A stretch of DNA of 64,000 bases from Bryobacterales bacterium. Its GTDB lineage: Bacteria > Acidobacteriota > Terriglobia > Bryobacterales > UBA6623. Location of the stretch: positions 3,669,963 through 3,733,962 of the forward strand of contig CBDEGI010000004.1 of NCBI GenBank assembly GCA_965237575.1, given 5' to 3'. A program made the position numbers and the translations under genes. Shown one piece after another: positions 1 to 16,038 of this stretch. Numbering within the stretch: position 1 is the stretch's first letter; each line of letters starts with the position of its first letter. The notes below the pieces were generated by a model. It was not told where the DNA came from. It was given only the letters and a program-made list of their open reading frames with translations, and ran no database searches.

Positions 1-1039
1 CGGGTTCGAGCAGGCGCTTGAGGTTGAAGAAGTGCTGTCCGGCGAGGACTTCGGTCGGCGCCATGATCGCCGTTTGATAACCGTTCTCGATGGCGATCAC
101 CCCGGCCTCGACGGCGACAATCGTCTTGCCGCTGCCGACGTCGCCTTGCAACAGGCGGTTCATCGGAGCGGGCTGCGACATGTCGGTCGCGATTTCTTTG
201 AGTACGCGCTTCTGGGCGGCCGTAGGCTTGAACGGGAGGATTTGCTTGATCTTCTCGCGGGCACGGTCGTTCAACGCGAAGGCGATTCCATCGACCGCAC
301 GGGCCTTGCGGCGCTTGAGCGCCAGGCCGCATTCGAGGTAGAAGAACTCTTCGAAGATCAGGCGGTATTGCGGTGCGGTGCGAAAGTTGTTGAGCGCGCG
401 GATGCCGTTGCCCTTGGGCGGGAAGTGCGTTTCGCGCAAGGCCTGGCGGCGCTCGGGCAGGCCGAGGCGGCGGCGGATTTCCTCCGGCAGCGGGTCGTCG
501 AGTTGGGAGACGCCTTCGAGGCAACGAGAGACCAGAGAGCGAATCACGCGCGTGGTGATCTTCCCCATCCCTTGATAGACCGGCACGATCCGGCCCAGGT
601 GCAGGTGCGCTTCGGTGTCGTCGGGGCGGAGAATTTCGTACTCGGGATGCACCATCGACAACTCCGACGCATAGGCGTTCCACTCGACTTTGCCGTAGAG
701 CGCGACGCGCTGCCCGCGCTCGAAGATTGACTGCAGATAACCGCCGCGAAACCACTTGCCCACCAGCACGCCGCCCGAGTCGTCGCGCACGCGGATCTCG
801 AACATGCGGAGCTGACTGGTGCGCGGGCGGAACAGTTGCGTGCCGAAGACCTCGCCGACCACCGTCGCTGTCTCGCCCGCTTCGAGCGCGGCGGTCGACT
901 TGACGTTGCCGCGGTCCTCGTAGCGGAACGGCATGTAGTAAAGCAGGTCCTCGATGGTAACCAACCCTTTGGAGGCGAACGTCCGGGCGCGTTGCTGGCC
1001 GATGCCCGCGACGGCTTCGAGGGGTGTGTCGAGGTCCAT
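1..1039 (-). CDS. recG: ATP-dependent DNA helicase RecG, N-terminal part (3' end leaves the window)
   Basis: This minus frame is absent from the ORF track because it has no stop in the window. My translation from the ATG at 1039-1037 gives MDLDTPLEAVAGIGQQRARTFASKGLVTIEDLLYYMPFRYEDRG (wedge region). Walker A MNRLLQGDVGSGKTIVAVEAG lies at about 163-100. Confidence 0.85.
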   Translation of the reverse strand, partial: MDLDTPLEAVAGIGQQRARTFASKGLVTIEDLLYYMPFRYEDRGNVKSTAALEAGETATVVGEVFGTQLFRPRTSQLRMFEIRVRDDSGGVLVGKWFRGGYLQSIFERGQRVALYGKVEWNAYASELSMVHPEYEILRPDDTEAHLHLGRIVPVYQGMGKITTRVIRSLVSRCLEGVSQLDDPLPEEIRRRLGLPERRQALRETHFPPKGNGIRALNNFRTAPQYRLIFEEFFYLECGLALKRRKARAVDGIAFALNDRAREKIKQILPFKPTAAQKRVLKEIATDMSQPAPMNRLLQGDVGSGKTIVAVEAGVIAIENGYQTAIMAPTEVLAGQHFFNLKRLLEP

Positions 1040-1123
1040 GAGGGTGTCGAGGCCGGCCGGCTTCGTCCGGACCGCTGGACTCTCCAGTGTGCCACGGGAA
1101 ACTGTAACGGGCAGGATCGTCCC

Positions 1124-1270
1124 AAATCCGTACGTAAGGATTCTCACGATCGCCTGATGCCCGGCCCGTTGCAACCGCGCCCTCGACCACAACCGAGCCG
1201 CGGACGGAAGTCCGCGGTTCCCCCTCCGGCGCAACCTGACGCATCCAACGACGGGAGCGAACGGGGTCGA
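1124..1270. repeat. Composite intergenic repeat, copy 1: near-palindromic 18-mer AATCCGTACGTAAGGATT plus a module of about 120 nt with a GGAA-capped hairpin at 1198-1217
   Basis: Aligns by eye to 8860-8991, where the module is in inverse orientation. The hairpin is CCGCGGAC-GGAA-GTCCGCGG. Confidence 0.6.
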
Positions 1271-1515
1271 GAAGTGGCTGAAGCCGGCAGGGGAAGGACG
1301 TTAAAACGCCCTAAAGGGTGTGGCAGTGCCCGCGTAAACCGGCCGTAAACGACCGGCCTACAAGCGCTTCGCGTGGAAGTCGCCTGAAGGCGACTGCGTT
1401 CGGTACCGACGCATCCCTTAAGGCGGACCAAGGCGGAAAACGGAGACGCTGCAAGGACGCGCAACCATAACGAAAATCGGTGGTGGAGGCCGCGGATCGG
1501 CGGGCGCGCTCGCCG

Positions 1516-2946
<1,431 letters not shown>

Positions 2947-3031
2947 GGGGGCCAACCCCTGCTGCCCAACATTGTAGACCAAGACAGGCTTGGTGCTGCC
3001 AAGGATCGCAGCCACCGATCATATCAACGAT

Positions 3032-3322
3032 TCAGAAACCGGGGTCTTTTCGCGCCCCGTGCCAAATGTGGAGAACCCTAACGAGCCCTCGCTCGCTGTC
3101 CACTTCGTAGTAGATCGGGTACGGAGTGTGGATGAGTAGCCTGACCTGCTGGTCGCGTCGTACGGACGCTCCCCGCATCGGAAAGCTTCTCAAGGTCTCA
3201 ATGTGGTCGAGAAGTGCGCCACCCACCCGCTCGGCAGCAATGGGGTTGTCATCCGCGATGCATCCCAGGATGGATTGAAGGTCGGCTATCGCTTCTTCGG
3301 TGAGGACGACGCTGAAATCCAC
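3032..3322 (-). CDS. parE: ParE/RelE-family type II toxin
   Basis: 96 aa: MDFSVVLTEEAIADLQSILGCIADDNP...LLIHTPYPIYYEV...VRVLHIWHGAR. Size and motifs are typical of ParE. Confidence 0.8.
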   Translation of the reverse strand: MDFSVVLTEEAIADLQSILGCIADDNPIAAERVGGALLDHIETLRSFPMRGASVRRDQQVRLLIHTPYPIYYEVDSERGLVRVLHIWHGARKDPGF

Positions 3323-3468
3323 TGCGGCAGCCTCTTGCGCACGTCTTCCAACGGTTGCATACGACCTGCGGTCGAGTCGTCCCGGCCGCGCTGGATCGCC
3401 GCCAGCGTTTCAGCATCCTCCTCGCCGATGCCGGGGCGTGGGGATTCAGCCTTTTCGGCTTCGCTCAT
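3286..3468 (-). CDS. Putative ParD/CopG-like antitoxin (short)
   Basis: C-terminal 60 codons of ORF 3286..3828, starting at the ATG at 3468: MSEAEKAESPRPGIGEEDAETLAAIQRGRDDSTAGRMQPLEDVRKRL. It sits directly upstream of parE and overlaps it by 37 nt. The start is uncertain. Confidence 0.5.
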   Translation of the reverse strand: MSEAEKAESPRPGIGEEDAETLAAIQRGRDDSTAGRMQPLEDVRKRLPQWISASSSPKKR

Positions 3469-3636
3469 AACCTCAGGATAGCTCAAGACAGACGGGCCAC
3501 GGTGAATCGAATCGCTGACGAGACCCGGGCTGGGCCTCTTGACAGCCTCGTGGGAGATCAACTGCGACAAGGTGTCAGTTATGATTGGGTGCGGCGTTGT
3601 GACGGAGAGAAGATCGGTGATTAGTGGAGCCATGCC

Positions 3637-4131
3637 ATGACAGACGGTGAATTCAAGTCGTATATAGAGGATCGCTACCAGCACCAGGTCGACTGGTATG
3701 ACCGCAAGGCAGGAGTTAACCAGGCGATCTATAACCGGATGCAGTGGGCCATTATCATCCTGGCGGCGGTGACCCCGGTCCTTGTGGTGTTTGTGCTCGA
3801 CAAAGATCTGCCAACGGGACTGGACCACCTGCCGGCCATCACGTCAGCCGCCGTGGCCATCTTGACGGCTGCGCTGAAGACATTCAAGTACCAAGAAAAC
3901 TGGATCAGCTACCTCACGACGTGCGAGACTCTTCGCAAGGAAAAGCACTTTCTCGATGCGAACCTGGGTGACTACCACGGAGGTTCAGAGGAGAGTAAAA
4001 GAGCGACCTTTGTCGAGCGAGTCGAGAGCCTGATTTCACGAGAAAATACCGTATGGCTAACGACCCAGAAGACCGGAGGGCGGGCCAAGCCAGAGGAAGA
4101 TCAGCCGACCGGGAAGGCGGTGGAGGGTTGA
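3637..4131 (+). CDS. SLATT / DUF4231 family 2-TM protein
   Basis: 164 aa. Motifs: YIEDRYQHQVDWYDRKAGVNQAIYNRMQW, two hydrophobic helices, KTFKYQENWISYLTTCETLRKEKHF and FVERVESLISRENTVW, all as I remember DUF4231. GGAG lies 8 nt upstream of the ATG. Confidence 0.75.
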   Translation: MTDGEFKSYIEDRYQHQVDWYDRKAGVNQAIYNRMQWAIIILAAVTPVLVVFVLDKDLPTGLDHLPAITSAAVAILTAALKTFKYQENWISYLTTCETLRKEKHFLDANLGDYHGGSEESKRATFVERVESLISRENTVWLTTQKTGGRAKPEEDQPTGKAVEG

Positions 4132-4340
4132 TCTAGGGAAGCACGCAACGGACTGTTCAGAAGCCAGGACATTAGCGGTCCGCGACGGCCAGACCTCTGG
4201 CAAGATCGAGTCACCACATCAAAAGAGATGTCTTCATGCACTCCGCGCCCGGACCAAGCTCGGCGTCATCCGCCTCGCTCAGGCCACGCCCCGGGGCGGA
4301 CAACTCCTACGAGCAGGGTGGGCTGTCTCACAGCCGTCCT

Positions 4341-5714
4341 TCAGTTCGCAGCCAACACTTCGATTACCTCTTTGACAACGACATCCGCGTCGGACCGCGG
4401 ATCTTGCGCGCTGAGAAGACGGTGATGCAAGCGACCTTTGAGCTTCGGATGTGGCGCTGATCGGCCATTGGCCATGAACGGAAGGATTTTCACCTTGTTA
4501 CCACGCCTAAGTATCTCGTCCATCTCGTCGATGCAGTTCTCTGATGTCTCGTAACCTTCGGTCAGCAGCACGACGAAGTGCGTCGTCTTACTAAGCTGTT
4601 CGTTGAGTTCCCTCTTCCACTGTGCTCCACTGACATTTACGGTGTGGTACTCGTAGAGGTTGACGCCCTGTTGGCGAAGCGATTCGACGATGTTCTCAAC
4701 GAGCGCGCGGTGTGGTGGTTTGAGAGTGTGGCTGATAAAGACGAAGCATTTCGAGTAGCGCTTGGACTGGAGATACCGGCGAGCCTCTTCCCCGGCAAGG
4801 GCGGGACTGATTCTGAACATGGCGTTAGCCCGTGGCTCAATTAATTCGCGAAGCTCAATCCGATTGTTCCACCGCACAATGTCGTGCTGGTAGCCACCCG
4901 GGTGGCCCTGGAGGAGCCAAGGCAGTTCGGAATCGCCGCTTATCATGCGGATCGTAGGAACGCCCAGCCCGTGCGCAAGAGCGCAAATCTGGCGGCTCAC
5001 TAGGTCCTCCCTGCTCAGGTCCGCGATCACCAAGCCAGTGGAATGAAGAATCCGAAACACTTCGGTGTTGCTAAGATTTACGTCGCCCGATAGAACCCGC
5101 TCGTATCCAGCGTTGCCGAGGACGGTCTGCAGTAGGTCACCCAACTGGGAGGATTCAGGCCTATCGCGAGAGATTAGGCTCAGAGCCATGTTGGATGGCT
5201 CGTAGCTCATCGGCCTCAGGTGCTCAACGGCCCATTCCACCCACTGCCTGATGTTTGGCGCTATGAATGTGCGCCAGTTCCTTCTCTCTGGTAGTGGGTC
5301 GTCGACACCTCGGTCGAAAGGAATGTACACCTCACGCAGTCCCGACCTTGGTGGTGACCGAAATCGCGTTCCGCGCTCATAAAGGACAAAGCGCGGGATG
5401 TTAAGACGCTCCGCCAAACGGATTTCGAACAGGCTATAGGGCGAGCATCGTATGGATGCATCACCCGGGCCTTCTCCGGTGGCAGAATCACGCTCCGCTA
5501 GCACACACAGGAACAGATCACTGCGTCGCAGCAGCTCCTCGATGCGATTGATGTAGTAAGGCGGGTCGGCGCCAGGTTCCTCTGGCACGTCGACGAGGAG
5601 TTCGCTGGACTGGGCAATCTCCTCGCAGACCGAGAGATTCAATTCGACATCATGCGGTCGCCAACTATGGCTGAAGTAGACAGCGTATTTGTCAGCCTCT
5701 CTAGTATCCGTCAT
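4341..5714 (-). CDS. Multi-domain TIR protein (TIR-like / NDT-like Rossmann / TIR)
   Basis: Last 457 codons of ORF 4341..6143. The ATG at 5714-5712 overlaps the upstream stop as ATGA. Motifs: KYAVYFSHSW...SPYSLFEIRLA (aa 9-115), GLVIADLSREDLVSRQICALAHGLGVPTI (aa 175-265), and KCFVFISHT...VVLLTEGYETSENCIDEMDEIL (aa 322-415). Confidence 0.75.
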   Translation of the reverse strand: MTDTREADKYAVYFSHSWRPHDVELNLSVCEEIAQSSELLVDVPEEPGADPPYYINRIEELLRRSDLFLCVLAERDSATGEGPGDASIRCSPYSLFEIRLAERLNIPRFVLYERGTRFRSPPRSGLREVYIPFDRGVDDPLPERRNWRTFIAPNIRQWVEWAVEHLRPMSYEPSNMALSLISRDRPESSQLGDLLQTVLGNAGYERVLSGDVNLSNTEVFRILHSTGLVIADLSREDLVSRQICALAHGLGVPTIRMISGDSELPWLLQGHPGGYQHDIVRWNNRIELRELIEPRANAMFRISPALAGEEARRYLQSKRYSKCFVFISHTLKPPHRALVENIVESLRQQGVNLYEYHTVNVSGAQWKRELNEQLSKTTHFVVLLTEGYETSENCIDEMDEILRRGNKVKILPFMANGRSAPHPKLKGRLHHRLLSAQDPRSDADVVVKEVIEVLAAN

Positions 5715-6808
5715 GACCGCTGATTCGGGTCGACTGCCCTTAGATCGACCACATCGGAGGAAATGAGTTTTCGGAAAACCGCGTCGAGTGTCAGGCCTGC
5801 GATGAAGCCGACAGCCACACCGAACGGTACCAACCGACTGGCCTGCCTGACCAACTCGGCCTGGGAGACGATGGAGATTTGTGCCGTAATGAATAGCAAG
5901 CCCGCGACACCCCCTGCTATCAGGCCGAGTGCGGCGGTTGTAATCGTCGATCGGGATGTTAGGGGCATGGCTCCCTGGTGGAGGTCGAACACGAGTCGGA
6001 TGGTTGAGCCGGAGACGCCAGCCAGTGATGGAGAAAAGAAGAGCAACCAGAGAGCGCCCGACAAGTCTAAGCTCGAGCCCCAGGCGAGCGGGACACAGAT
6101 CATCGCCAGCAAGAACAAAACAACTGCCACGATTGCATGCCACTTGATCGATGTCTCCGCGCGGAGTTCTTCCAGCCGTCGTTGCTGCTCCTCATCAGCT
6201 GGCCGTGAAAGCTGATTCGTTAGGGTCTGGACAACCTCGTCGGCAAGATCAGATGACCAAGGCCGCCCCATCAGCGAAATCTCGTCCGCGCTGGGCAGGT
6301 CTCTTCCGGGCTGGAGGGCCTCCCAGACTTTGGCCGCCTCGCCGCCGAACGCTGCGAGAGCTACGATCGCCATTCGGTGCCCCATGGCGACGACACCGGC
6401 GATCATAGTCGAGTCCCCCCCGCCGAGAAGCAGAATCCCGTCTACTTCGCTTAGCGAATGGTAGAAGGATATCTCCCAGTCCAGGCTACGGTCAGGTCGC
6501 CAATCGAAAACCTGTTCGTGCGTCTGCTGCTCCCGAAACGCGGGTTTCTGGCCATGAAGAGGGTAGCGAACCTGAATGGAACGCGGCTTCGCCACCTGGC
6601 TGTCGATGTACCCTTCCACAATCGGAACCTCCAGAAAGTCGGCGCCACTTGAGTAAACAAGTATTCGAAATCCGGATTTCGCCAGTGCGCGCCCGAGATC
6701 CTTGGCGGCGACAGAGGCCTCGGTTGAGGTTTTCAAGTTCCCCACGATTGCGACGACGGGGGCCTCTGACTGGCGTAAGGTGGACACCCCCGAATTGTAC
6801 ACCAGCAT
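5711..6808 (-). CDS. SLOG/LOG-like Rossmann domain fused to a 4-TM C-terminal module
   Basis: 365 aa. N-terminal half: PVVAIVGN...LGRALAKSGFRILVYSSG...VDGILLLGGGDSTMIAGVVAMGHRMAIVALAAFGGEAA. Four hydrophobic helices lie at about aa 222-243, 250-272, 287-310 and 325-345. Confidence 0.7.
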   Translation of the reverse strand: MLVYNSGVSTLRQSEAPVVAIVGNLKTSTEASVAAKDLGRALAKSGFRILVYSSGADFLEVPIVEGYIDSQVAKPRSIQVRYPLHGQKPAFREQQTHEQVFDWRPDRSLDWEISFYHSLSEVDGILLLGGGDSTMIAGVVAMGHRMAIVALAAFGGEAAKVWEALQPGRDLPSADEISLMGRPWSSDLADEVVQTLTNQLSRPADEEQQRRLEELRAETSIKWHAIVAVVLFLLAMICVPLAWGSSLDLSGALWLLFFSPSLAGVSGSTIRLVFDLHQGAMPLTSRSTITTAALGLIAGGVAGLLFITAQISIVSQAELVRQASRLVPFGVAVGFIAGLTLDAVFRKLISSDVVDLRAVDPNQRS

Positions 6809-7136
6809 CTACAGAATGCCGAGGACTTACCCCGTTAGTGCTCCGAAACGAATCCTTTGCCCGAACGCCGTCAGGGCCCGTCGGCCTGGGGGGAACAGTC
6901 GCTGTTTCACTCTCGTCCCGGTCGCGCAAGGATCACACCCTCATTTACGCCGCGCGATCGCCTAACCCGGCTATCATTCGTATAGTCGGTCCGATCGTAG
7001 CGAACAGCCATGATCCGACTGGCCTTACGTACCCTTGACCTGGCGCAGGCCTGACAGACGAGTATCCGGAACGACCCAATCCAAAGCACTCATTCGGTCC
7101 GTGCGGCTCCCCTCGCAACGGCATCAGTAGAGCCCA

Positions 7137-7460
7137 ATGATCCCCAAAGAGCTGGGCAAGAAGATCCGCTTCATCCAGATCTACACCAGCAAGGCCGTGA
7201 ACGACGTGCTTGCCGGGGAGTACCACAGCGTGTTCAAAGGCCGCGGGATGGAGTTCGACGAGGTGCGCGAGTACACGCCGGGCGACGAGATCCGCACTAT
7301 CGACTGGAAGGTCACCGCCCGCGTCGGACACCCCTACGTCAAGCGCTACGTAGAGGAGCGCGAGCTGACGGTGATGTTCGTTGCCGACCTCTCTGCCTCG
7401 GGTACGTTCGGCAGCACCGAAAAGCGTAAGAACGAAGTCGCGGCGGAGTTGTGCGAAGGA
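7137..7460 (+). pseudogene. DUF58 (MoxR-associated, vWA-like) protein, N-terminal fragment of about 105 aa
   Basis: GEYHSVFKGRGMEFDEVREYTPGDEIRTIDWKVTARVGHPYVKRYVEERELTVMFVADLSASGTFGS. Family-like sequence ends at about 7455. Full-length DUF58 proteins are about 300 aa. Confidence 0.7.
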
Positions 7461-7464
7461 AGGC

Positions 7465-7686
7465 TTCGGGTTCATGCGCATCTACTCCGATCCAGCCGAC
7501 GCCGAGCCGTTTGATTACGCCGACGCGGTCGAGGACGGCGACACGGTCATGATCCCGCGTAGCTATCACCCGGTGGTGGCGTTTCCCGCCTACACGTTGA
7601 ACTACACCTGGATCCTGGCGGGCGAAGGGCGGACGTACGGCGCCTGGGCCGATGACCCCCGCTACGCCAGGATCAAGGAGGGGTAA
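7465..7686 (+). pseudogene. KduI/IolB-family (5-deoxy-glucuronate isomerase-like) C-terminal fragment
   Basis: RIYSDPADAEPFDYADAVEDGDTVMIPRSYHPVVAFPAYTLNYTWILAGEGRTYGAWADDPRYARI. Only the last 70 or so residues of the family are present, in a different frame from the DUF58 fragment. Confidence 0.5.
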
Positions 7687-7695
7687 GCGCTTGTC

Positions 7696-8724
7696 TCACT
7701 CCCCAGGCACTCGGGTACGGTCGTGGGGCTCGAGCTGCAGCCGCCACTCGAGCGGAACTTCTTCGGGCAGATAGCAGAGCTTGTCGTCACAGGCCTGATA
7801 GCGGAAGGAGCCTTCGATGACGACTTCGCCGAGCTCGTTGGTGAGCGCCGCGAGATCATCGGCCTTGCCGAGCAACACGTCGGCCATCAGCCGGAACGAG
7901 CCGTTGTAGACGGGCACAATCTCCTGAATCGCGGGCAAGTGCAGCAGCTCCGAGTCCGGGTAAGCGGGAGGGAAGGGCCGTAGGCCGGCCGCGTCGCTGA
8001 TGACCCACTCGCTGGGGATATAGCCTTCTACGCCCGGGGCATACACATGCATCTTCGGATTCAGGTGTACGTCGAGAACTAGCGCCACGCGGTTCTCCGC
8101 GCGTACGACTTCATCGCTCGCCCAGGTGCTGAGGCGCAGATGATTCGTCGCGTGCTCGGATCGCGTCGCTGCCGACTCGCCTTGCAACTCGCGCACGAGG
8201 ATATTGCCGGCCGTGAGCCGGTCGGCCGGGTCCTGTTCGAGAAACTTGGCCGTGACTTGACCCTGTGCGTCAATCAACAGGCGGCACGCCTGGGCGACGC
8301 CGTAGAAGCGATGCGCGGCCGGGACCGCTTCGTTGAGCAACCCGAACGCGCGGATCGTTTTCGAATCGGGATCGGAGAGCAACGGGTAGGTGATGTCGGC
8401 GCGCTCGGCGAAGTGGCGGAGGACATCGGCCGAGTCGAACGTGACCGCGGCAACGTGGATGCCCTCTTGCTCGAAGTTCTCTCGCTGCCGCTCAAGTTGA
8501 ACGAGCTGGTCTTTGCAGTAGATGCACCAGTCGGCCGAGCGTTGGAAGACCAGCAGCAGTCCTCGCGGACCACGTAGGGATTCGAACGTCTGTGGGTTGC
8601 CCTGCTGGTTTGCGAGCTCGAACGGCGGGATGCGCGTGCCGACGTCGGGACCCACGGGCTCGGCGTGTGCCGGCCGCGCGAGCAGGAGAGTCGATAACAC
8701 CGCGCTGAGGATGAAGGTTCGCAA
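7696..8724 (-). CDS. Secreted peroxiredoxin/redoxin (AhpC-TSA) fused to a DsbD N-terminal-like domain
   Basis: Signal peptide MRTFILSAVLSTLLLARPAHA, redoxin motif LLVFQRSADWCIYCKDQ, and C-terminal FRYQACDDKLCYLPEEV typical of the DsbD alpha domain. Confidence 0.8.
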   Translation of the reverse strand: MRTFILSAVLSTLLLARPAHAEPVGPDVGTRIPPFELANQQGNPQTFESLRGPRGLLLVFQRSADWCIYCKDQLVQLERQRENFEQEGIHVAAVTFDSADVLRHFAERADITYPLLSDPDSKTIRAFGLLNEAVPAAHRFYGVAQACRLLIDAQGQVTAKFLEQDPADRLTAGNILVRELQGESAATRSEHATNHLRLSTWASDEVVRAENRVALVLDVHLNPKMHVYAPGVEGYIPSEWVISDAAGLRPFPPAYPDSELLHLPAIQEIVPVYNGSFRLMADVLLGKADDLAALTNELGEVVIEGSFRYQACDDKLCYLPEEVPLEWRLQLEPHDRTRVPGE

Positions 8725-8781
8725 GGCTGCCCGGGTCTCGAGAGGTCACTGCTCAGCCCTTAGGTTAGCGGAGTGAGGAGT

Positions 8782-8806
8782 AGCGCCTGCGGTGTGTGCG
8801 TGTTCC
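8782..8806 (-). promoter_or_regulatory. Candidate ECF-type promoter (GGAAC-N16-CGCT) upstream of the peroxiredoxin gene
   Basis: The minus strand reads GGAAC acgcacacaccgcagg CGCT, about 60-80 nt upstream of the ATG at 8724. This is a motif match only. Confidence 0.25.
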
Positions 8807-8859
8807 CCACCTGTCGGGTGTTGGAAGAGTAAAGGCTCAAACACCCCGCCGGGGCTCGG

Positions 8860-8991
8860 ACCGGTGGTTGGATGGCCAGGTTGCGCCGAGCGGCAACCGC
8901 GGACTTCCGTCCGCGGTTCGGAAGCTTCGATGGCGCGGTTGCGAGGGGCCGCGGCATCACAAATCCGTATGTAAGGATTCTGACGAATCGC
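8860..8991. repeat. Composite intergenic repeat, copy 2 (module inverted relative to copy 1)
   Basis: 8961-8991 AAATCCGTATGTAAGGATTCTGACGAATCGC matches 1124-1153. Hairpin 8897-8916 is the reverse complement of 1198-1217. Confidence 0.6.
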
Positions 8992-8996
8992 TTAGG

Positions 8997-9797
8997 TCAG
9001 CGGCCGGAACGCCCGACGAAGAGCGGCAGGTAATGTCCCAGGGCATAGCCCAGCAGAGCCACGGCCAGAGCGATCCCGAGGTGTGTCAGCGCGATGTGGG
9101 GGGCGGTGTGAAGGCTGCATCCGAAATGCAGAACAGTCATGCCGACCAGCCCGGCCATCAATCCCGCCCCCGCGCCGGCCACCCCCAGCGATAGGACGGC
9201 CCCGCGGCGCAACAGCAGACTAATCAAAGCCGAGGCGGGGAACGAGTACATCAACCCGGTTCGGAAGCACATCCAACTCTGGGGCAGGAACGTGCCGCTC
9301 ACGTCCCAGGGGAAGGCGACGGCGACGGCGAGGAACAGCGCCGCCAACAATGACAAGAACAGCCGCGCGGGCGGCAGCAATCGCGGCGAGCCGGGGACCA
9401 TCTCGCGGCTCAGCGTCACCGACAACAGCAAGATGACCGCGCCCACCACGCCCAAGATGCCGGCGAAACGCAAGGCACCCATCTCGACCGCGCCACCGAC
9501 GCCCGTCATCACTATGAAGATGCCTGAGAGGACCGCGTAAACCAGCAGGAAGGCAGCCGTCAACAGCGAAGCGCCGGGCAGCGGCCGGACCGCCTCGAGC
9601 GAGCCCACGACCGATGACTTGATCTTGGCTTCGACCTCGGGGGCGACACGTTCGGACAAGTCACGCCGGGTGAGGAAGTCCCACACCTTGCGGCAGGGGG
9701 CGCAATTCTCCAAGTGTTCACGGACGGCCTGGGGCAGTTGGCCCCAGCCTTCCGGCGCCGTGCGGTGCAGGTGTTCGCCGGCTTCAGAGCACGTCAT
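8997..9797 (-). CDS. Anti-sigma factor: zf-HC2 N-terminus plus a polytopic membrane domain (NrsF/DUF1109-like)
   Basis: HLENCAPCRKVWDFL matches the H-x3-C-x2-C motif and is followed by about 6 hydrophobic helices. The start overlaps the sigma gene stop (ATGA at 9794-9797). Confidence 0.7.
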   Translation of the reverse strand: MTCSEAGEHLHRTAPEGWGQLPQAVREHLENCAPCRKVWDFLTRRDLSERVAPEVEAKIKSSVVGSLEAVRPLPGASLLTAAFLLVYAVLSGIFIVMTGVGGAVEMGALRFAGILGVVGAVILLLSVTLSREMVPGSPRLLPPARLFLSLLAALFLAVAVAFPWDVSGTFLPQSWMCFRTGLMYSFPASALISLLLRRGAVLSLGVAGAGAGLMAGLVGMTVLHFGCSLHTAPHIALTHLGIALAVALLGYALGHYLPLFVGRSGR

Positions 9798-10477
9798 CGC
9801 GTCGTTCCCACCTTGGAGGACTCCTGCAACAGGACTCGCAGTTTCTCGTACGCCCGGTGCGCCTTCTGCTTGACGGCGCCCACGGTGCTGCCGGTGGCGT
9901 TGGCGACCTCCTGGAGGCTCATTCCCGAAACTTTTAGCATTCTGATGACCACTTGCTGGCTTTCGGGCAGTTGCTCGAGTAGCCGCCAGATGTCATAGTC
10001 AGCCGCATCCGGGCCCCGGCCGAACGATTGCCGCGGCTCGACCGGCTCATCGAAGGCCAGCTCCTTGGCGTCGATCCGTTTCCGGCGGCGATAGGCGTCG
10101 ATGCGCGTGTGGCGCGCAATCGCGAAGATCCACGGCAACACGGGACTACCCGGCCGGTAGGTGTGCCGCGCCTTATGGATCCGAAGCCAGCAATCCTGCA
10201 GCATGTCTTCGGCGAAGGGGCGCGTCTGCAGCGGTCCAGCCAGGAACCGCAGCAACATAGGCGACACGCTTTCGACCAACGCGGAAGCGGCGTCTCGGTC
10301 CGCATTCTGATAACCCGTCATCAATTCCTGGAGGCGCGCGGCGTCCGGCCGTTCCTCGGCTTTTGCTGAAGCCGCGCCCGTCTCCATGGCAGACTCCGTC
10401 GTCGTCACCGAATCCGCACGCGGGGACACACCGCCGCCATAAGCTGCCTCGCCTCTTGGTTCGCCGCCGTCAGGCAT
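9794..10477 (-). CDS. ECF-type RNA polymerase sigma-70 family factor
   Basis: Region 2: DMLQDCWLRIHKARHTYRPGSPVLPWIFAIARHTRIDAYRRR. Region 4: LPESQQVVIRMLKVSGMSLQEVANATGSTVGAVKQKAHRAYEKL. The N-terminal start is uncertain. Confidence 0.85.
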   Translation of the reverse strand: MPDGGEPRGEAAYGGGVSPRADSVTTTESAMETGAASAKAEERPDAARLQELMTGYQNADRDAASALVESVSPMLLRFLAGPLQTRPFAEDMLQDCWLRIHKARHTYRPGSPVLPWIFAIARHTRIDAYRRRKRIDAKELAFDEPVEPRQSFGRGPDAADYDIWRLLEQLPESQQVVIRMLKVSGMSLQEVANATGSTVGAVKQKAHRAYEKLRVLLQESSKVGTTR

Positions 10478-10652
10478 GAGGTTACGGGACGAGAGTGACC
10501 CGAAAAAGAGCGAACGACCACTCGGGGCGCAGGCTGGAGCGCCGCCCGGAAACTGCTCTCAGACCCTTGACACCCATGGTACACTTTCGGCGCAGGGCGG
10601 CTTACTGGCAACGGCTTGTTTGCGGCGAGGGTTGCGGTCGGCAAATTTCCCC

Positions 10653-10681
10653 TTGCCAATAAGGAGATTCGTCCGTATAAT
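10653..10681 (+). promoter_or_regulatory. Near-consensus sigma-70 promoter TTGCCA-17nt-TATAAT
   Basis: TTGCCA at 10653-10658, a 17-nt spacer, and TATAAT at 10676-10681. It points toward the repeat element and the dksA-like gene about 580 nt downstream. Confidence 0.5.
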
Positions 10682-10930
10682 CGATACATTCCCGCACGGC
10701 TGCCGGGCACGGGGGTGCTGCGGCAGCATCGTTTGGCGATTTCGCAAACGGGGTTCGATAGCGGCGTAGGCCGCTGTTCCTCAAACGGCTAGCCACTGGG
10801 ACACGGTTGGTCGTTCCCGCTCGAGGGACGAAGCAGAGGGCTTGGCTTTTTGGCTCCGCTCGTAAGCAAGAACCTGTAACCAGATCGGTTTGCGCTGGGT
10901 CTAACAGACCTGGATCAAAACGACGATAGT

Positions 10931-11200
10931 GGGGTATCCATTTGACTCAGGTGACCACAACATACTGTGGTTGGCCATTGGCGGCCCCCGGAAAGGCTTG
11001 CCGATAGCACCACGTTTCCAAGCCTGCGATGGCCATGGCGCGTGCGTAATCCTTGATCGGCCCGAAACGCAGCCTCGTGGCCCAATTGCCTGCAGACCGG
11101 CGTCTGGCGCCCCAGGGTGCATTCTGGGTGCAGTGTGCTGGCGTCCATGGATCGACCAAACCACAACGCCTAGGGGCTACCTGAGTCAAGTGGATACCCC
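10931..11200. repeat. 270-bp element with 22-nt terminal inverted repeats (MITE or structured RNA), family copy 1
   Basis: GGGGTATCCATTTGACTCAGGT (10931-10952) pairs with ACCTGAGTCAAGTGGATACCCC (11179-11200), with one T:G mismatch. It is flanked by the direct repeat CGACGATA (10921-10928 and 11204-11211). Homologous to 40668-40917. Confidence 0.65.
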
Positions 11201-11260
11201 ATTCGACGATATAGTGACTTGCCCGCCGCCCTGTGGGCACGTCGGACTGGAAGGTGCATC

Positions 11261-11671
11261 ATGGCGAAAGGGACAACGAAGGCTCTAAACAAGGCTCAAA
11301 TCAGGCGCTTCAAGGGAATGCTCGAAGCAAAGGCCGAGGAGATCCGCCAAAACCTGCAGTCGGCGAAAGCCGCCAAGGCGCTCGCCCGCGGGCAAGAGCC
11401 CGTCAATATGGAAGAGCTGCCGGGGCAGAGCCACGAGGAGTGGATCTTCCTGAACCGCAACAACATCGATGCGATGCTGTTGCGGGAGATTCAAGAAGCC
11501 CTGAGCCGCATTGAAGAGAACGCGTTCGGCATCTGCCTGGAATGCGAGGAGAGCATGTCGCTCAAGCGATTGCAGGCGATTCCGTGGGCGCGCTACTGCG
11601 TCGCGTGCCAGGAAGAACTCGCGGGTTATCCCGAAGAGTCGACCCGGCAGAAGCGCTCGTACTCGTTCTGA
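11261..11671 (+). CDS. DksA/TraR-family C4 zinc-finger protein
   Basis: ATG at 11261 within ORF 11219..11671, preceded by GGAAGG. Contains CLECEESMSLKRLQAIPWARYCVACQEE. Confidence 0.8.
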   Translation: MAKGTTKALNKAQIRRFKGMLEAKAEEIRQNLQSAKAAKALARGQEPVNMEELPGQSHEEWIFLNRNNIDAMLLREIQEALSRIEENAFGICLECEESMSLKRLQAIPWARYCVACQEELAGYPEESTRQKRSYSF

Positions 11672-11756
11672 CGCGAAGGCGAAACGCAGCCTCCGACGCA
11701 ATCCAGTCACGGCACTTCGAAAAAAAGTCTCGGGCCTCGATCAGGGCTCCCAGCAA

Positions 11757-12467
11757 TCAGGCTTGGGGGCCCTTTTCCATTGCGGCCAGCTCATCGAGAT
11801 CCAGCCTACCGGTATAGATCGCCATCCCAAGGGCGCAGTGAATGCCGAGCCCGGTGAGTTCTTCGATCTCCTCGAGGGAGGTGATGCCCCCGGCCGCGGT
11901 GAGTTCCTTGCGGGTGGCTTGGCGTAGGCGGCGGTACCAGCCGAGATCGGTACCTTCGAGCATGCCCTCTTTGTCCACGTAGGTGCAGAGAAAGCCGCCG
12001 CAGTAGGGCTCGAGAGTGGCGATCACATCTTCGGCGGAGAGCGCCGTCGCTTCCCGCCATCCTTTGACGACGATCCGTCCGCCTTTCGAGTCGAGGGCCA
12101 ACAGAACGCGGCCGACACCGACAGCCTGGCCCAGTTCGTCCAGGAAGGCCTCGTCGACTCCGCCATCCTTGTACGCGGCCGTGCCTACGATGACCTTGGA
12201 AGCGCCTGCCTCGACCAGCGCGAGCGCGCGCTCGACCGAACGCACTCCGCCGCCGACGCGCGTCACCGCCTGCGATGCCAGGTGCCGGACGATGTGGTCG
12301 TTCGAGCCCGTGCCCATGGCAGCATCGAGATCGATCACTTGAATTTCAGGGAAGGCGGAGAACTTCCGGAGCATCGCATCGGGCGGGTCGCCTTCGAGCG
12401 CCTTGTCACGGCCCTGGATGAGCTGCACCACCTTGCCCTCCATCAGGTCGATGCAGGGAATGATCAC
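11757..12467 (-). CDS. hisA: HisA/HisF-family TIM-barrel protein (ProFAR isomerase-like)
   Basis: MIIPCIDLMEGKVVQLIQG...VIDLDAAMG...VGGGVRS...TAAGGITSLEEI. GTG start at 12467. Confidence 0.7.
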   Translation of the reverse strand: MIIPCIDLMEGKVVQLIQGRDKALEGDPPDAMLRKFSAFPEIQVIDLDAAMGTGSNDHIVRHLASQAVTRVGGGVRSVERALALVEAGASKVIVGTAAYKDGGVDEAFLDELGQAVGVGRVLLALDSKGGRIVVKGWREATALSAEDVIATLEPYCGGFLCTYVDKEGMLEGTDLGWYRRLRQATRKELTAAGGITSLEEIEELTGLGIHCALGMAIYTGRLDLDELAAMEKGPQA

Positions 12468-12931
12468 CGCGGCACCTCGCTGAGGCAGCGCACCGCTTCC
12501 GTTGCGTAGAAGCGGACGGCGTCAGGGATGTTGGCATCTCGGGCGGCGACCTCCGCGAGAGTGAACCAACGGATGTCGTTGTGCTCGGCCTCGGCCAGCG
12601 TGACGCGCTCCGTCGCCGCGCGGGCGAAGTAGATCATCCCCAAGTGATGGTGCTCTCCGGAGATGTGATGCACGTCGAGGTACGCTGGGGCGATGAGAAA
12701 GCGCGTGCCGGCGCAGTCGAGGGATGGACGCTTACCGTACAGCTCGATGGTCAGTCCGCTCTCCTCGGCGACCTCGCGCAACGCGGCTTGCTCGGGATCT
12801 TCACCGGGATCGATATGGCCGCCGAGAGGTAGCCACTTTCCCAGTTGCTTGTGGTCGACCAGCAACACCTTCTCGTTGTACACCACAAAAACCGAGACGG
12901 TGAAGTCGAGGTAGTAGTTGAGGTGCGGCAT
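12464..12931 (-). CDS. NUDIX hydrolase
   Basis: Nudix box GGHIDPGEDPEQAALREVAEESGL. The stop overlaps the hisA-like start. Confidence 0.85.
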   Translation of the reverse strand: MPHLNYYLDFTVSVFVVYNEKVLLVDHKQLGKWLPLGGHIDPGEDPEQAALREVAEESGLTIELYGKRPSLDCAGTRFLIAPAYLDVHHISGEHHHLGMIYFARAATERVTLAEAEHNDIRWFTLAEVAARDANIPDAVRFYATEAVRCLSEVPR

Positions 12932-13056
12932 CGAGGAGCGGTGGCTCGCAACGTGTCGCGAGGAAACCGTTAGTGTAGATCAGATGCTTTGGATGTCTCG
13001 CGTCCGCTTCGAGTCTGAGGTGGCGTAAGCCGCCAATCCGGCAAGCGTCTGCCCTA

Positions 13057-13902
13057 CTAGGGCAGGCTCACGGCCGGGTCCTCCGCCACCACCCGATCGC
13101 TCCGCGGCCCGATATGAATGTGCGGTCCCGTCGACTGCCCCGGCACGCTGCTGCGGAACGCGATGAACGGGATCTCCCACTCGTAGAGCAACTCGATCAG
13201 GAAGATGCCTTCCTCATCATCGGGGTGCACCGCCACGTCGAGCCGCCCGGCGTGGTCGAACCCCATCGACCGGTGCATCTCCGTCTCGCCCCGCGCGCTG
13301 ATCGGAAGCGCCTGGCCAAACTGGCTGAAGAACGCCGCATCGATCGCGAGCGCATCCTCTTCCCAGCTCCCTCCCGCGACCTCCGAGGAGAACGCCAAGT
13401 CTTCTTCCTCCAACTCGTCCAGCCGGTCTTCGGCGCGCGCCATCAGTCCCATCTCGCGGACCAGCTTCGAGCGTTGCTCCGCCAACTCGTACTGCCGTTC
13501 ACCCCAGTCGGCGGCCTCCTTCACCTTCTTGAGTTGCTGCAGGGGCAGCGCCCCGGCCTCGGCCAGTTTGCGAGCCCCGGCCAAGTCCTCGCGCGACATC
13601 TCGCGCAGCACCGCGACCGCCCGCATCATCTCCGGCAGGCGGCCCTCGGTCAGCTCGCCACTCATCAGGGTCTCTCGCACGACTTGCTCGAGCCGCTTGC
13701 GCTCGGCCTTACCCCGTGCCTGCTGGATCGCGTTCTCGGGGAGCACTCCGGCCTCGACCAGCGCCTGCACGCGCTTCTCCTCGGGCCCGGCCGGCGGCGG
13801 ATCTTGCGCGACGGCAGGGCAAGCCGTCCACGCCACCACAAGAATCCAACAAAGCCGTTGCACAGTTTCGAAGCGGGTTCTAAGGGGCGCCCGTGGGCGC
13901 AT
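13057..13902 (-). CDS. Secreted hypothetical protein (coiled-coil region plus C-terminal His-rich motif)
   Basis: ORF 13057..13974. The internal start MRPRAPLRTRFETVQRLCWILVVAWTACPAVAQ looks like a signal peptide. The C-terminus contains HRSMGFDHAGRLDVAV and GPHIHIG. Confidence 0.55.
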   Translation of the reverse strand: MRPRAPLRTRFETVQRLCWILVVAWTACPAVAQDPPPAGPEEKRVQALVEAGVLPENAIQQARGKAERKRLEQVVRETLMSGELTEGRLPEMMRAVAVLREMSREDLAGARKLAEAGALPLQQLKKVKEAADWGERQYELAEQRSKLVREMGLMARAEDRLDELEEEDLAFSSEVAGGSWEEDALAIDAAFFSQFGQALPISARGETEMHRSMGFDHAGRLDVAVHPDDEEGIFLIELLYEWEIPFIAFRSSVPGQSTGPHIHIGPRSDRVVAEDPAVSLP

Positions 13903-14047
13903 GGTCGTGCGCTTGCTGGCATCGTGTCCGCCACTCGCGCACGCGTCAGGGGCCAAGCTCATTCTAGCGGCCACTCCTCACACAGCGCTAAGATGGGCTG
14001 CAAGGTAGCTTGCGGGTAAGGTACTTGCGAGCAAGGTACGGGGCCGA

Positions 14048-14389
14048 ATGACGGATTGGGAAATCGCTGTCGGGGCGGCGCAGGAGCGTAAGGCAACCGA
14101 TCTGGTCGTGCTCGACATCAAGGAAGTCAGCACGTTTACCGACACCTTCGTGCTGTGCACGGGGCTCAACGGACGCCAGGTGCAAGCGATCTCCAACGCG
14201 ATCGAAAGGGCGCTCAGGGAAGAAGGCGTCCGCGCGATCGGGATCGAAGGCCGTCAGAACGCCGAATGGGTGCTGATGGACTACGGCGACTTCCTCGTGC
14301 ACATTTTTTCACCGCAGGCCCGCGAGTTCTACGATCTCGAGCGTCTGTGGAAACGCGCCCCGCGCATCCCGGTCCCCGACGCCGCCTGA
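14048..14389 (+). CDS. rsfS: Ribosome silencing factor RsfS (iojap)
   Basis: DLVVLDIKEVSTFTDTFVLCTGLNGRQVQAISNAIE...EWVLMDYGDFLVHIFSPQAREFYDLERLW. Confidence 0.9.
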   Translation: MTDWEIAVGAAQERKATDLVVLDIKEVSTFTDTFVLCTGLNGRQVQAISNAIERALREEGVRAIGIEGRQNAEWVLMDYGDFLVHIFSPQAREFYDLERLWKRAPRIPVPDAA

Positions 14390-14417
14390 ACGGGGCCCGC
14401 CGGCCAGCGTCCCAGCC

Positions 14418-14822
14418 GTGAACATCCACCTCGTTTACATCGGCAAGCCCCGCAACGCCGACGCCAACCGTCTGGCCGCCGAGTACGCCCGCCGCATCAC
14501 CCGCTTCTGCCGCTTCGACATGATCGAGGCCAAAGACGAGAAGAGCGCCGGCCGTTACCCCAAGGCCGTCCGTGTCGTTCTCGACCCCGAGGGCCCGATG
14601 ATGAGTTCCCAGGAGTTGGCTTCGTTCCTCGAAAAGAACTCGAGCGAAATCGCCTTCTTCGTGGGCGGCGCCGAGGGCTTCAGCGACGAGTTTCGCCGCG
14701 GCGCCGACCGCCTGTTGTCGCTCTCGAAGATGACCCTGCCGCACGAGCTGGCAAGGGTGGTCCTCACCGAGCAGATCTACCGCGCTTTCACGATCCTGAG
14801 CGGCCACCCTTACCCCAGGTAA
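14418..14822 (+). CDS. rlmH: 23S rRNA (pseudouridine1915-N3)-methyltransferase RlmH
   Basis: GTG start. FFVGGAEGFSDEF...LSLSKMTLPHELARVVLTEQIYRAFTILSGHPY. The rsfS-rlmH order is conserved. Confidence 0.85.
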   Translation: MNIHLVYIGKPRNADANRLAAEYARRITRFCRFDMIEAKDEKSAGRYPKAVRVVLDPEGPMMSSQELASFLEKNSSEIAFFVGGAEGFSDEFRRGADRLLSLSKMTLPHELARVVLTEQIYRAFTILSGHPYPR

Positions 14823-14913
14823 AGGCGGGCCCCTGTGCCCGCCCACGGTGCAGCGGCATTGCTTGTAACCGGCGTGCTAAAGACAACTAAAAAATCAACC
14901 AGGAGAACCACAC

Positions 14914-16038
14914 ATGGATCCCGTCGCCAACGCAGTTCTCGGAATCGTCTTCCTGGCCCTTGGGGCCGCCGGCACGTTCTTGATGTACCACCTGTGGGGT
15001 TACCCCTTCGACCACGAGACCCATACGAGTGAAGCGCCGCCGCGGCTGATGCGTATCCATCGCTTGATCGGGTGGCTTTACCTGATCCTCTATCTCTACT
15101 TCATGAGCCAGATGGTGCCGCGGCTGTGGAACTACCAGATCGAGTTCCCGGCGCGTACGGTAGCCCACCTCACGCTGGGGATGACGATCGGTGCGCTGAT
15201 CGTGATCAAGATCGCCATCGTGCGCTTTTTCAAGCATATGGAGTCCACGCTGGTTCCGTTGCTGGGCACGGCGCTGCTGGTGTGCACGATTCTGCTGATC
15301 GGTCTCTCCGCGCCGTTCGCCTTCCGCGAAGCCTATCTGCGGGCACAGCAGACCGGAGGCTCGTTCAGCGACGAGACTCTCGAGCGCGTCCGGTCGCACC
15401 TGGTGCTGGCGGGCCTCGACGACCCCGAGACCCTTGCCCACTTGGCCTCGCCTACCGGACTCGAAGCCGGCCAGGGGGTCTTGCTGGCCGAGTGCGTGAC
15501 GTGTCACGACCTGCGCACCGTTCTGGCCCGGCCGCGCACGCCCGAGAACTGGCATCAGACCGTCCAGCGCATGGCCGACCGCTCCACCCTGCTCGCGCCG
15601 ATCGACGAAGACCAGCAGTGGGAAGTGACCGCCTACTTGATTGCGATCTCGCCCGAACTACAACGATCCGCTCGTGAGAGGAAGAAGCGCCTCGATCAAG
15701 AGGAGGCTTCGCAGCGGGCCGCGACGCAGGTTGCGGGTATGGCAGAGCAAGGGGCGGGCCAGGCAGTGCAAGGGCCAGGGACGCAAGCGGCGGGCCCTGG
15801 AACGAGAGGAGCGGGTGAAGCCGCGCCGGCCCCCGTCGACCCCGAGCAAGCGCGGCAGCTTTATGAGACTCGCTGCGCCCTGTGCCACCCACTAACCGTC
15901 GTCGAAGCCGCGCCCCCGACCTCCGACGCCGAGACCCGAGCGCTGGTCTCGCGCATGGTCAGCAACGGCATGCCCGCCACCGAGGAAGAGTTGGTGCAGC
16001 TCATCGACCACCTCAACCGAGCGTTTGTGAACAGATAA
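14914..16038 (+). CDS. Membrane-anchored di-haem c-type cytochrome-like protein
   Basis: Four N-terminal hydrophobic helices, then two CXXCH motifs (AECVTCHDL and TRCALCHPL). Confidence 0.65.
   Translation: MDPVANAVLGIVFLALGAAGTFLMYHLWGYPFDHETHTSEAPPRLMRIHRLIGWLYLILYLYFMSQMVPRLWNYQIEFPARTVAHLTLGMTIGALIVIKIAIVRFFKHMESTLVPLLGTALLVCTILLIGLSAPFAFREAYLRAQQTGGSFSDETLERVRSHLVLAGLDDPETLAHLASPTGLEAGQGVLLAECVTCHDLRTVLARPRTPENWHQTVQRMADRSTLLAPIDEDQQWEVTAYLIAISPELQRSARERKKRLDQEEASQRAATQVAGMAEQGAGQAVQGPGTQAAGPGTRGAGEAAPAPVDPEQARQLYETRCALCHPLTVVEAAPPTSDAETRALVSRMVSNGMPATEEELVQLIDHLNRAFVNR

Follow-up and report, generated by a model that had tools for sequence, protein, structure and literature searches.

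A gene for a TIR protein of three domains, at positions 4341..5714 on the minus strand of a 64,000-nucleotide stretch of DNA from a Bryobacterales bacterium (GenBank assembly GCA_965237575.1, contig CBDEGI010000004.1, positions 3,669,963 to 3,733,962; called the window in the following), is on balance probably the ThsB-like part of a Thoeris-type abortive-infection cassette that comprises two or possibly three genes and is situated on a small acquired islet. This reading is built on a C-terminal TIR_2 domain with an aligned glutamate, on the homology of the N-terminal domain, on an operon in which the gene is joined by an ATGA overlap to a conserved partner, on a context of conflict genes and on Thoeris precedents. 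The system is a further member of a candidate Thoeris type that is already catalogued and unvalidated. What we did not find described is a cryptic, strictly conserved second domain of the TIR/deoxyribonucleotide-hydrolase (DRHyd) fold in the same polypeptide, together with a wider module composed of this N-terminal domain, a central (M) domain and the TIR domain (N-M-TIR), which is fused elsewhere to CHAT or PNP domains. TIR enzymes make immune second messengers in bacteria and plants, and to our knowledge every new bacterial Thoeris type to date has led to a new signal or effector.

The features of the TIR gene and of its partner are as follows (evidence in brackets):

4341..5714, minus strand, stop codon included: gene of the three-domain, ThsB-like TIR protein, 457 aa (translation, homologues, AlphaFold2 model)
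5205..5714, minus strand: N-terminal domain, residues 1-170, with the signature YFSHSW...N26...E59...R75...CSPYSLFE (HHalign, Foldseek, conservation)
5424..5444, minus strand: SPYSLFE motif, residues 91-97, with the GAA codon of E97 at 5424-5426; S91 and E97 form a candidate catalytic or ligand-binding pair (invariance, alignment to S391/E397)
4800..5204, minus strand: central domain, residues 171-305, five-stranded beta/alpha (DSSP of the model, conservation)
4344..4763, minus strand: C-terminal canonical TIR domain, residues 318-457 (Pfam TIR_2/TIR and PDB profile matches)
4524..4544, minus strand: SENCIDE motif, residues 391-397, with the GAG codon of E397, the predicted catalytic Glu, at 4524-4526 (alignment, invariance)
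5711..5714, minus strand: ATGA start/stop overlap between the TIR gene and the upstream partner gene, predicted to couple their translation (sequence GGTCATGACGG)
5711..6808, minus strand: partner gene, 365 aa, predicted effector (homologues, alignment, hydropathy)

An earlier note on this DNA, drawn from its letters and open reading frames (ORFs), had placed the start of the TIR gene at the ATG at 5714. This start agrees with the ATGA overlap with the upstream stop codon and with homologues whose starts fall within ~10 residues of it. A 600-aa ORF beginning at a GTG at 6143 was rejected as the real gene and is an over-extension, since the homologues begin near M1 and since its extra 143 codons (5714-6143) coincide with the part of the 365-aa partner gene that encodes, in a different frame, its highly conserved C-terminus. 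All motifs quoted in the note lie at the residues that it gave in the 457-aa translation, namely YAVYFSHSW at 10-18 (window 5661-5687), GLVIADLS at 227-234, ALAHGLGVPTI at 245-255 and FVFISHT at 324-330 besides the two Ser/Glu motifs listed above. The three tandem domains that it described are predicted with confidence, as alpha/beta domains, by AlphaFold2 (AF2): the full-length model, built from a 30-sequence alignment and assigned its secondary structure by DSSP, has a predicted local distance difference test (pLDDT) score of 88 and a predicted template-modelling score (pTM) of 0.86, and its domains span residues ~1-165, 176-300 and 320-457.

The C-terminal domain is, by its sequence, a bona fide TIR domain, and E397 is its predicted catalytic residue. 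Scans of the whole TIR protein with Pfam, NCBIfam and PADLOC found TIR_2/TIR on this domain as the only family above threshold: TIR_2 covers residues 325-433 with an E-value of 3.2e-15 (57.1 bits, cut-off 28), TIR was matched with an E-value of 2e-05 (24.9 bits, cut-off 21.3), and the PADLOC match to ThsB1 had an E-value of 0.013. When the family profile was searched against PDB sequences, Cat1, AT1G72930, L6, Roq1, RUN1, RPP1 and AbTIR were matched via the C-terminal domain only, and the three profile alignments to Cat1, AT1G72930 and L6 pair E397 with the C..EL glutamate, which is the catalytic one in solved TIR NADases. The assignment of this domain to the TIR family in the earlier note therefore holds, as does its observation that the N- and C-terminal domains share one Ser-to-Glu spacing: the S-x5-E of SPYSLFE and SENCIDE is that of SDWCWDE in Cat1, SSWCLDE in AT1G72930 and SKWCLME in L6. 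This spacing occurs three times in the 457-aa protein and is by itself not unusual; the pair is meaningful because it is conserved, with C90, S91, F96, E97, S391 and E397 all invariant in 30 homologues of 44-60% identity.

The N-terminal domain is, judged from profiles and models, a divergent homologue of the TIR/DRHyd fold with a Glu at the catalytic position. Its divergence is considerable: Pfam matched no family on 21 isolated N-terminal domains at E-values up to 10, and the profile of the domain had no TIR chain and no chain of a nucleoside 2-deoxyribosyltransferase (NDT) among its matches to PDB sequences, while the matches that it and the central domain did give (RF2, DsbG-like) were rejected as spurious. 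Three independent lines nevertheless place the domain in this fold. In HHalign, a narrow N-terminal profile matched the TIR profiles with P = 0.004, S91 lying on S391 and E97 on E397, and broad profiles of 125 N-terminal and 74 TIR domains matched with a probability of 92.6% (E 4.5e-7, 81 columns) in the same Ser/Glu register. Foldseek provides the second line. Its search with the full-length model was set aside, its TIR matches not being assignable to one domain and its top hits, EngA and PleD, reflecting the tandem alpha/beta domains; for this reason the N-terminal domain was re-modelled alone by AF2 (pLDDT 85). Against the PDB this isolated model found best the TIR domain of TIR-STING (9lmq, E 9.4e-6, query TM-score 0.59), next many DNPH1/Rcl entries (E 1.5e-4 and weaker, target TM-score 0.55-0.69), and further nucleoside 2-deoxyribosyltransferases (7o62, 2a0k) and the TIR domains of IL-18R-beta, SPARTA and SARM1. 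The third line is position: in the full-length model each Glu stands six residues inside its helix, E97 in H92-103 and E397 in the equivalent H392-403. The TIR-like nature of the domain and its equivalently placed Ser and Glu, both proposed before, are thus borne out.

Compared with DNPH1/Rcl and the deoxyribosyltransferases of the DRHyd branch, the N-terminal model superposes on these enzymes, and by our own reading its stretch LFEIRLAE..IP resembles their Glu-containing helix; at the level of sequence, however, the domain matches none of them, its best profile match being the TIR domain of its own family, and its SHS/N/E/R signature is specific to the family. DNPH1 and the deoxyribosyltransferases are reported to use the same Glu position for catalysis.

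A search with the N-terminal profile against 1.84 billion representative proteins returned 169 proteins at E-values up to 1e-3, nearly always with the domain at the N-terminus. Eight polar residues at strand ends, S15, H16, S17, N26, E59, R75, S91 and E97, recur one by one in 81-82 of 82 distant homologues, and H16, S17, S91 and E97 in all 82; in the alignment of the 61 distant proteins of at least 280 aa the Ser, His, Ser, Asn, Ser and Glu of the N-terminal domain are invariant and the Cys and Glu of the TIR domain nearly so. The pocket of the N-terminal domain thus appears to be constrained at least as strongly as the canonical TIR site. As regards the earlier claim of a second candidate catalytic Glu, E97 stands as a conserved functional residue, and its part in catalysis is a prediction. 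TIR_2 was also found, at about residue 310-350, in 56 of these 61 proteins, and N-terminal domain, spacer and TIR_2 are followed at the C-terminus by CHAT/caspase-like domains (15 of the 61), PNP_UDP_1 (13) or EAD8 (3), and also by STAND NTPases (examples are P0294, P0305, P0309 and P0313). The frequent company of TIR_2 and these CHAT and PNP_UDP_1 fusions suggest that conflict systems draw on N-M-TIR as an old and mobile module. The N-terminal domain also occurs in proteins of ~300 aa that show no Pfam TIR match and whose length leaves room for a central domain; the family's M-domain profile gave no match in their central regions.

In the central domain, which probably serves as a spacer for structure or regulation, G227, H248, P253, R256 and a PGGY loop are conserved, and the position of the TIR Glu is taken by Leu or Ile (consensus QLYAAAH, without Glu). 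Nothing meaningful was found on 21 isolated central domains with Pfam at E-values up to 10 or with the M-domain profile in PDB sequences, and the HHalign matches to TIR (E 0.006, probability 6%, with an alignment that spans the whole domain) and to the N-terminal domain (E 0.03) were not significant. The idea of a deoxyribosyltransferase relative in the middle of the protein, put forward in the earlier note, was rejected, there being no sequence match and no Glu; the likeness to DNPH1 and NDT belongs to the N-terminal domain.

The TIR protein belongs to a sizeable family. A word-indexed protein search returned at least 170 matches, of which the 120 listed are near-full-length (~410-505 aa) and 44-60% identical; among the matches listed, the named homologues come from metagenome-assembled genomes (MAGs) labelled Planctomycetota, Korobacteraceae, Terriglobia, Nitrospira and Nitrospirota and their annotation says no more than 'TIR domain-containing' or hypothetical. 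In species-representative genomes a scan yielded 16 loci, which belong to Acidobacteriota, Nitrospirota, Chthoniobacteraceae, Rokubacteria and Thermoanaerobaculia. The deposited Nitrospira proteins P0089, P0097 and P0101 begin MELNLQVW or MQVW and have no YFSHSW strand (locus L003, 5920-7329); their open frame extends upstream and matches the profile from position 4, and the annotated starts are probably too far downstream. At some MAG loci the three-domain TIR gene is split across frames (L015 5734-7374, L023 5959-7530), as is the partner gene at others (L014 4010-5973, L018 4900-5978), which reflects either frameshifted pseudogenes or assembly errors.

The partner encoded upstream has >200 homologues and belongs to no Pfam family. 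It consists of a cytosolic Rossmann-like domain (~residues 15-200, with the motif GGGDSTMIAG, GGGxSTxIAG in the family alignment), a charged linker helix and about four transmembrane (TM) helices, which are clear from hydropathy and alignment as hydrophobic segments at ~219-249, 250-275, 287-315 and 323-349. Scans with Pfam, NCBIfam and PADLOC gave nothing above threshold. Sub-threshold matches to the SLOG superfamily were seen (LOG-like 1rcu and 1wek with E 0.3-1, DprA with 0.06, ShosA with 0.018, and LDcluster4 in 8 of 30 members), so that the soluble domain is weakly assigned as SLOG-like. Its linkage to the TIR gene is close: it lies directly upstream on the same strand at 12 of the 16 genome-collection loci and at 12 of the 13 with at least 45% identity, as well as in the further metagenome loci examined. 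The partners at the Korobacteraceae and Nitrospira loci are ~60% identical, and one is present in a contig labelled Planctomycetota; mean column identity is 57-63% in the alignments of TIR protein and partner. At two loci with more distant TIR relatives (L020 4275-7320 and L021 470-3468, 34-42% identity) the gene follows a polyprenyl-synthase-like gene, so labelled by eye from a DDxxD-type motif, and a separate small TIR gene, which is a different operon architecture.

This gene pair has been catalogued before. Yirmiya et al. (bioRxiv 10.64898/2025.12.03.692087) list 29 putative Thoeris configurations, and their Table S1 includes, for Ca. Nitrospira nitrosa COMA1, the TIR gene IMG 2691454909 with the putative effector '4TM SLOG', while Table S2 labels the adjoining effector gene 2691454910 'SLOG and 4TM'. 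The TIR-domain sequence given for COMA1 (FFVFLSHTLKGADRALVEQIY...SETCEYELREIL) is a clear homologue of the C-terminal domain here and of the Nitrospira proteins P0089 and P0097, so that, as far as these tables go, the putative '4TM SLOG' Thoeris and the present locus share the same protein families in an adjacent gene pair. The catalogue draws a single TIR boundary in each protein, using the median of the Foldseek hits, and gives 2691454909 a domain number of 1; the searched text and the searched part of Table S1 make no mention of the N-terminal TIR/DRHyd-like domain, of the central domain or of the SLATT gene described below. Neither the 4TM-SLOG configuration nor a tandem-TIR ThsB turned up in later work within the searchable literature. 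The same preprint reports TIR + SLATT as the validated type VII Thoeris with cyclic ADP-ribose (cADPR) as signal, and cites types I, III and IX as combining TIR with SLOG effectors; a grouping of TIR, DRHyd and SLOG (Burroughs et al. 2015) and the prediction of SLATT as a nucleotide-responsive pore come from the Aravind group, as quoted in PMC7159879. The partner, the SLATT gene and the catalogued TIR + '4TM SLOG' pairing go beyond what the earlier note had described.

The known Thoeris types resemble the cassette in different respects. Type I (ThsB TIR with ThsA SIR2-SLOG, signal 3'cADPR) places a TIR signal generator beside an effector with a SLOG receiver, as is proposed for the present pair; here, however, a 4TM module would give the output in place of a SIR2 NADase, Pfam does not reach the divergent SLOG-like domain, and the TIR protein has three domains. 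Types VII (TIR with the SLATT protein ThsH, canonical cADPR) and II (TIR with TM-Macro) join TIR to a killing protein that is small and spans the membrane. Here too the TIR gene has a SLATT_1 gene beside it, but one that is convergent rather than co-oriented and often decayed in relatives, and the conserved partner is the SLOG-4TM protein, with no Macro domain. Types III (several TIR proteins with a SLOG effector) and IX (TIR with a 'TIR and SLOG' effector) have more than one TIR-fold domain per SLOG effector; whereas their TIR domains are separate or carried on the effector, the two TIR-fold domains here stand in one polypeptide around a third domain.

The possible third gene of the cassette lies downstream of the TIR gene:

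3637..4131, plus strand: SLATT_1/DUF4231 protein with two TM segments, 164 aa (Pfam, NCBIfam)

It is convergent with the TIR gene, 209 bp from its stop codon, and its product matches Pfam DUF4231 (7.5e-18) and SLATT_1 (4.9e-17) and NCBIfam SLATT_1 (6.5e-36). The same arrangement recurs within unrelated flanks in the closest clade, where the gene is intact in L025/26, interrupted by a stop codon in L027/28 and truncated in L006-8; in L029 and L030 it is absent. Within the cassette the SLATT protein may serve as an accessory or as another effector. Upstream of a Nitrospira operon we also saw a SLATT-like gene (matching the one in the window with E 1e-10), which there overlaps a 228-aa ORF (L018, 3324-4509), and at L029 (5369-8101) and in the P0002 contig the convergent downstream gene encodes a 910-945-aa Pkinase-FHA-TIR_2 protein and not SLATT. 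The TIR gene is placed among defence and conflict genes, with a ParE toxin gene and SLATT as neighbours in the window and caspase, CHAT, TIR, Mrr, FRG and McrBC genes as neighbours at other loci. The GC content falls to 56-58% (~57%) over window positions ~3200-7000 from ~65% in the flanks, and this fall across the block of ParDE, SLATT, TIR and partner genes suggests a horizontally acquired islet of ~4 kb.

Working as a Thoeris system, the cassette would respond to phage infection by cleavage of NAD+ through the C-terminal TIR domain, yielding an ADP-ribose-derived second messenger that the SLOG-like domain of the partner would bind; the 4TM module of the partner would then oligomerise and breach or depolarise the membrane, leading to abortive infection or growth arrest. 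The SLATT protein would perhaps form a second, dispensable signal-responsive pore. The N-terminal domain would most probably bind a nucleotide, with E97 as the catalytic residue of a second N-glycosidase or hydrolase, and the domain could process the substrate or product or supply one half of a composite TIR-TIR active site; a diversifying phage sensor is argued against because its pocket is invariant. Several points weigh against this reading of the cassette. Two '4TM SLOG' operons, from Ca. Nitrospira nitrosa COMA1 and Streptomyces sp. GKU 895, are recorded as 'Defense: No' in E. coli MG1655 (bioRxiv 10.64898/2025.12.03.692087); NADase activity of either TIR-fold domain is a prediction from sequence, and the SLOG assignment rests on the sub-threshold matches together with the annotation of Yirmiya et al. 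The partner is absent beside a 442-aa subfamily (L004), which is set among TIR, ThsB_TIR and caspase genes, and beside relatives of at most 42% identity (L020, L021, L023), so the TIR protein is not strictly tied to the SLOG-4TM effector. SLATT is missing from most loci, and of the four contexts with a SLATT gene two show it in decayed form, and the N-terminal domain could be a non-catalytic ligand sensor.

This last point leads to the question of what the N-terminal domain does. We hold it to be rather unlikely that it is a second active TIR/DRHyd-fold enzyme which works with the canonical TIR in one polypeptide and gives this class of ThsB a signal chemistry not described so far; in that case it might form an intramolecular composite site, carry out another N-glycosidic or hydrolytic reaction, or sense substrates of the DNPH1 type, for instance phage-modified deoxynucleoside monophosphates. 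Possible, if doubtful, is a non-enzymatic domain, a conserved sensor of small molecules or proteins or an allosteric control on the C-terminal TIR, which would leave the system-level reading unchanged. A Thoeris TIR protein needs a way to sense infection, for which additional domains are obvious candidates, the domain has no Pfam TIR signature, its Foldseek TM-scores are moderate (0.5-0.6) and ~300-aa proteins with the domain and without detectable TIR exist; yet phage sensors usually diversify, whereas none of the 82 homologues departs from H16, S17, S91 and E97, and the conserved Glu sits where the aligned TIR domain has its Glu for N-glycosidic catalysis. The roles in the gene pair might also be exchanged, the TIR protein being an NAD+-depleting killing effector as in CBASS, Pycsar or SPARTA and the membrane protein its sensor or regulator. 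Effector TIRs of this kind are common, the best PDB sequence match of the C-terminal domain is the NAD-depleting effector Cat1, and N-M-TIR is elsewhere fused directly to CHAT or PNP effector domains; we regard this exchange as improbable, however, as SLOG is the signal receiver on effectors in characterised systems (type I ThsA), multi-TM modules typically do the killing and the TIR protein is the cassette's only signal-generating enzyme. More improbable still is a non-immune role of the pair as a membrane-associated metabolic or regulatory module for nucleotides or NAD, for instance a LOG-like phosphoribohydrolase with a nucleotide N-glycosidase. The negative defence assays of the two homologous operons, the metabolic nature of the LOG and DNPH1 relatives and the high conservation of both proteins agree with such a module, but the spread of the family over unrelated phyla is patchy, the islet is low in GC, the flanks are unrelated at every locus, the neighbours are toxin-antitoxin, SLATT, caspase, CHAT, Mrr and McrBC genes, and Yirmiya et al. 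state that only TIR clusters with a defence score >0.4 were collected (bioRxiv 10.64898/2025.12.03.692087).

For a Thoeris-type cassette as favoured here, the second TIR/DRHyd-fold domain with its strictly conserved Glu is a concrete possible reason why this class of ThsB might behave differently from others. The family is abundant in soil and water bacteria that are hard to culture (Acidobacteriota, Nitrospirota, Verrucomicrobiota and members annotated as Planctomycetota), and the signature YFSHS[WY]R...N...E...R...CSPY..FE..LA...P could become a domain model that annotates hundreds of proteins, including the CHAT and PNP fusions. If the N-terminal domain were a second enzyme, the cassette would use a signal chemistry that has not yet been described and that is read by divergent SLOG-4TM (and SLATT) effectors, and N-M-TIR with its CHAT and PNP fusions would represent a broad, unrecognised family of two-site TIR enzymes; if the domain is inert, the locus does no more than extend a candidate system that has been listed before.

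Some smaller observations concern the surroundings of the cassette. The neighbourhoods of L003 (Nitrospira) and of L004/L005 contain Peptidase_C14, CHAT with TPR-S, ThsB_TIR and other TIR_2 genes and a phage-type integrase, and have the look of a conflict island of TIR and caspase genes that recalls type IV Thoeris. In the window, the islet is bounded by the ParE toxin gene at 3032-3322 on the minus strand (Pfam ParE_toxin, 1.9e-14), which is preceded and at its start overlapped by a ~60-aa ORF (MSEAEKAES..., 3286-3468, minus strand), by eye the presumed antitoxin. A tRNA scan of window positions 1-16000 found no tRNA, and no tRNA-linked integration site is obvious. Beyond the partner gene, at 7137-7686 on the plus strand, lie two short overlapping ORFs that appear by eye to be gene fragments, a DUF58-like N-terminal piece (...EYTPGDEIRTIDWKVTAR...) and an IolB-like C-terminal piece, and these may be rearrangement scars at the edge of the islet.

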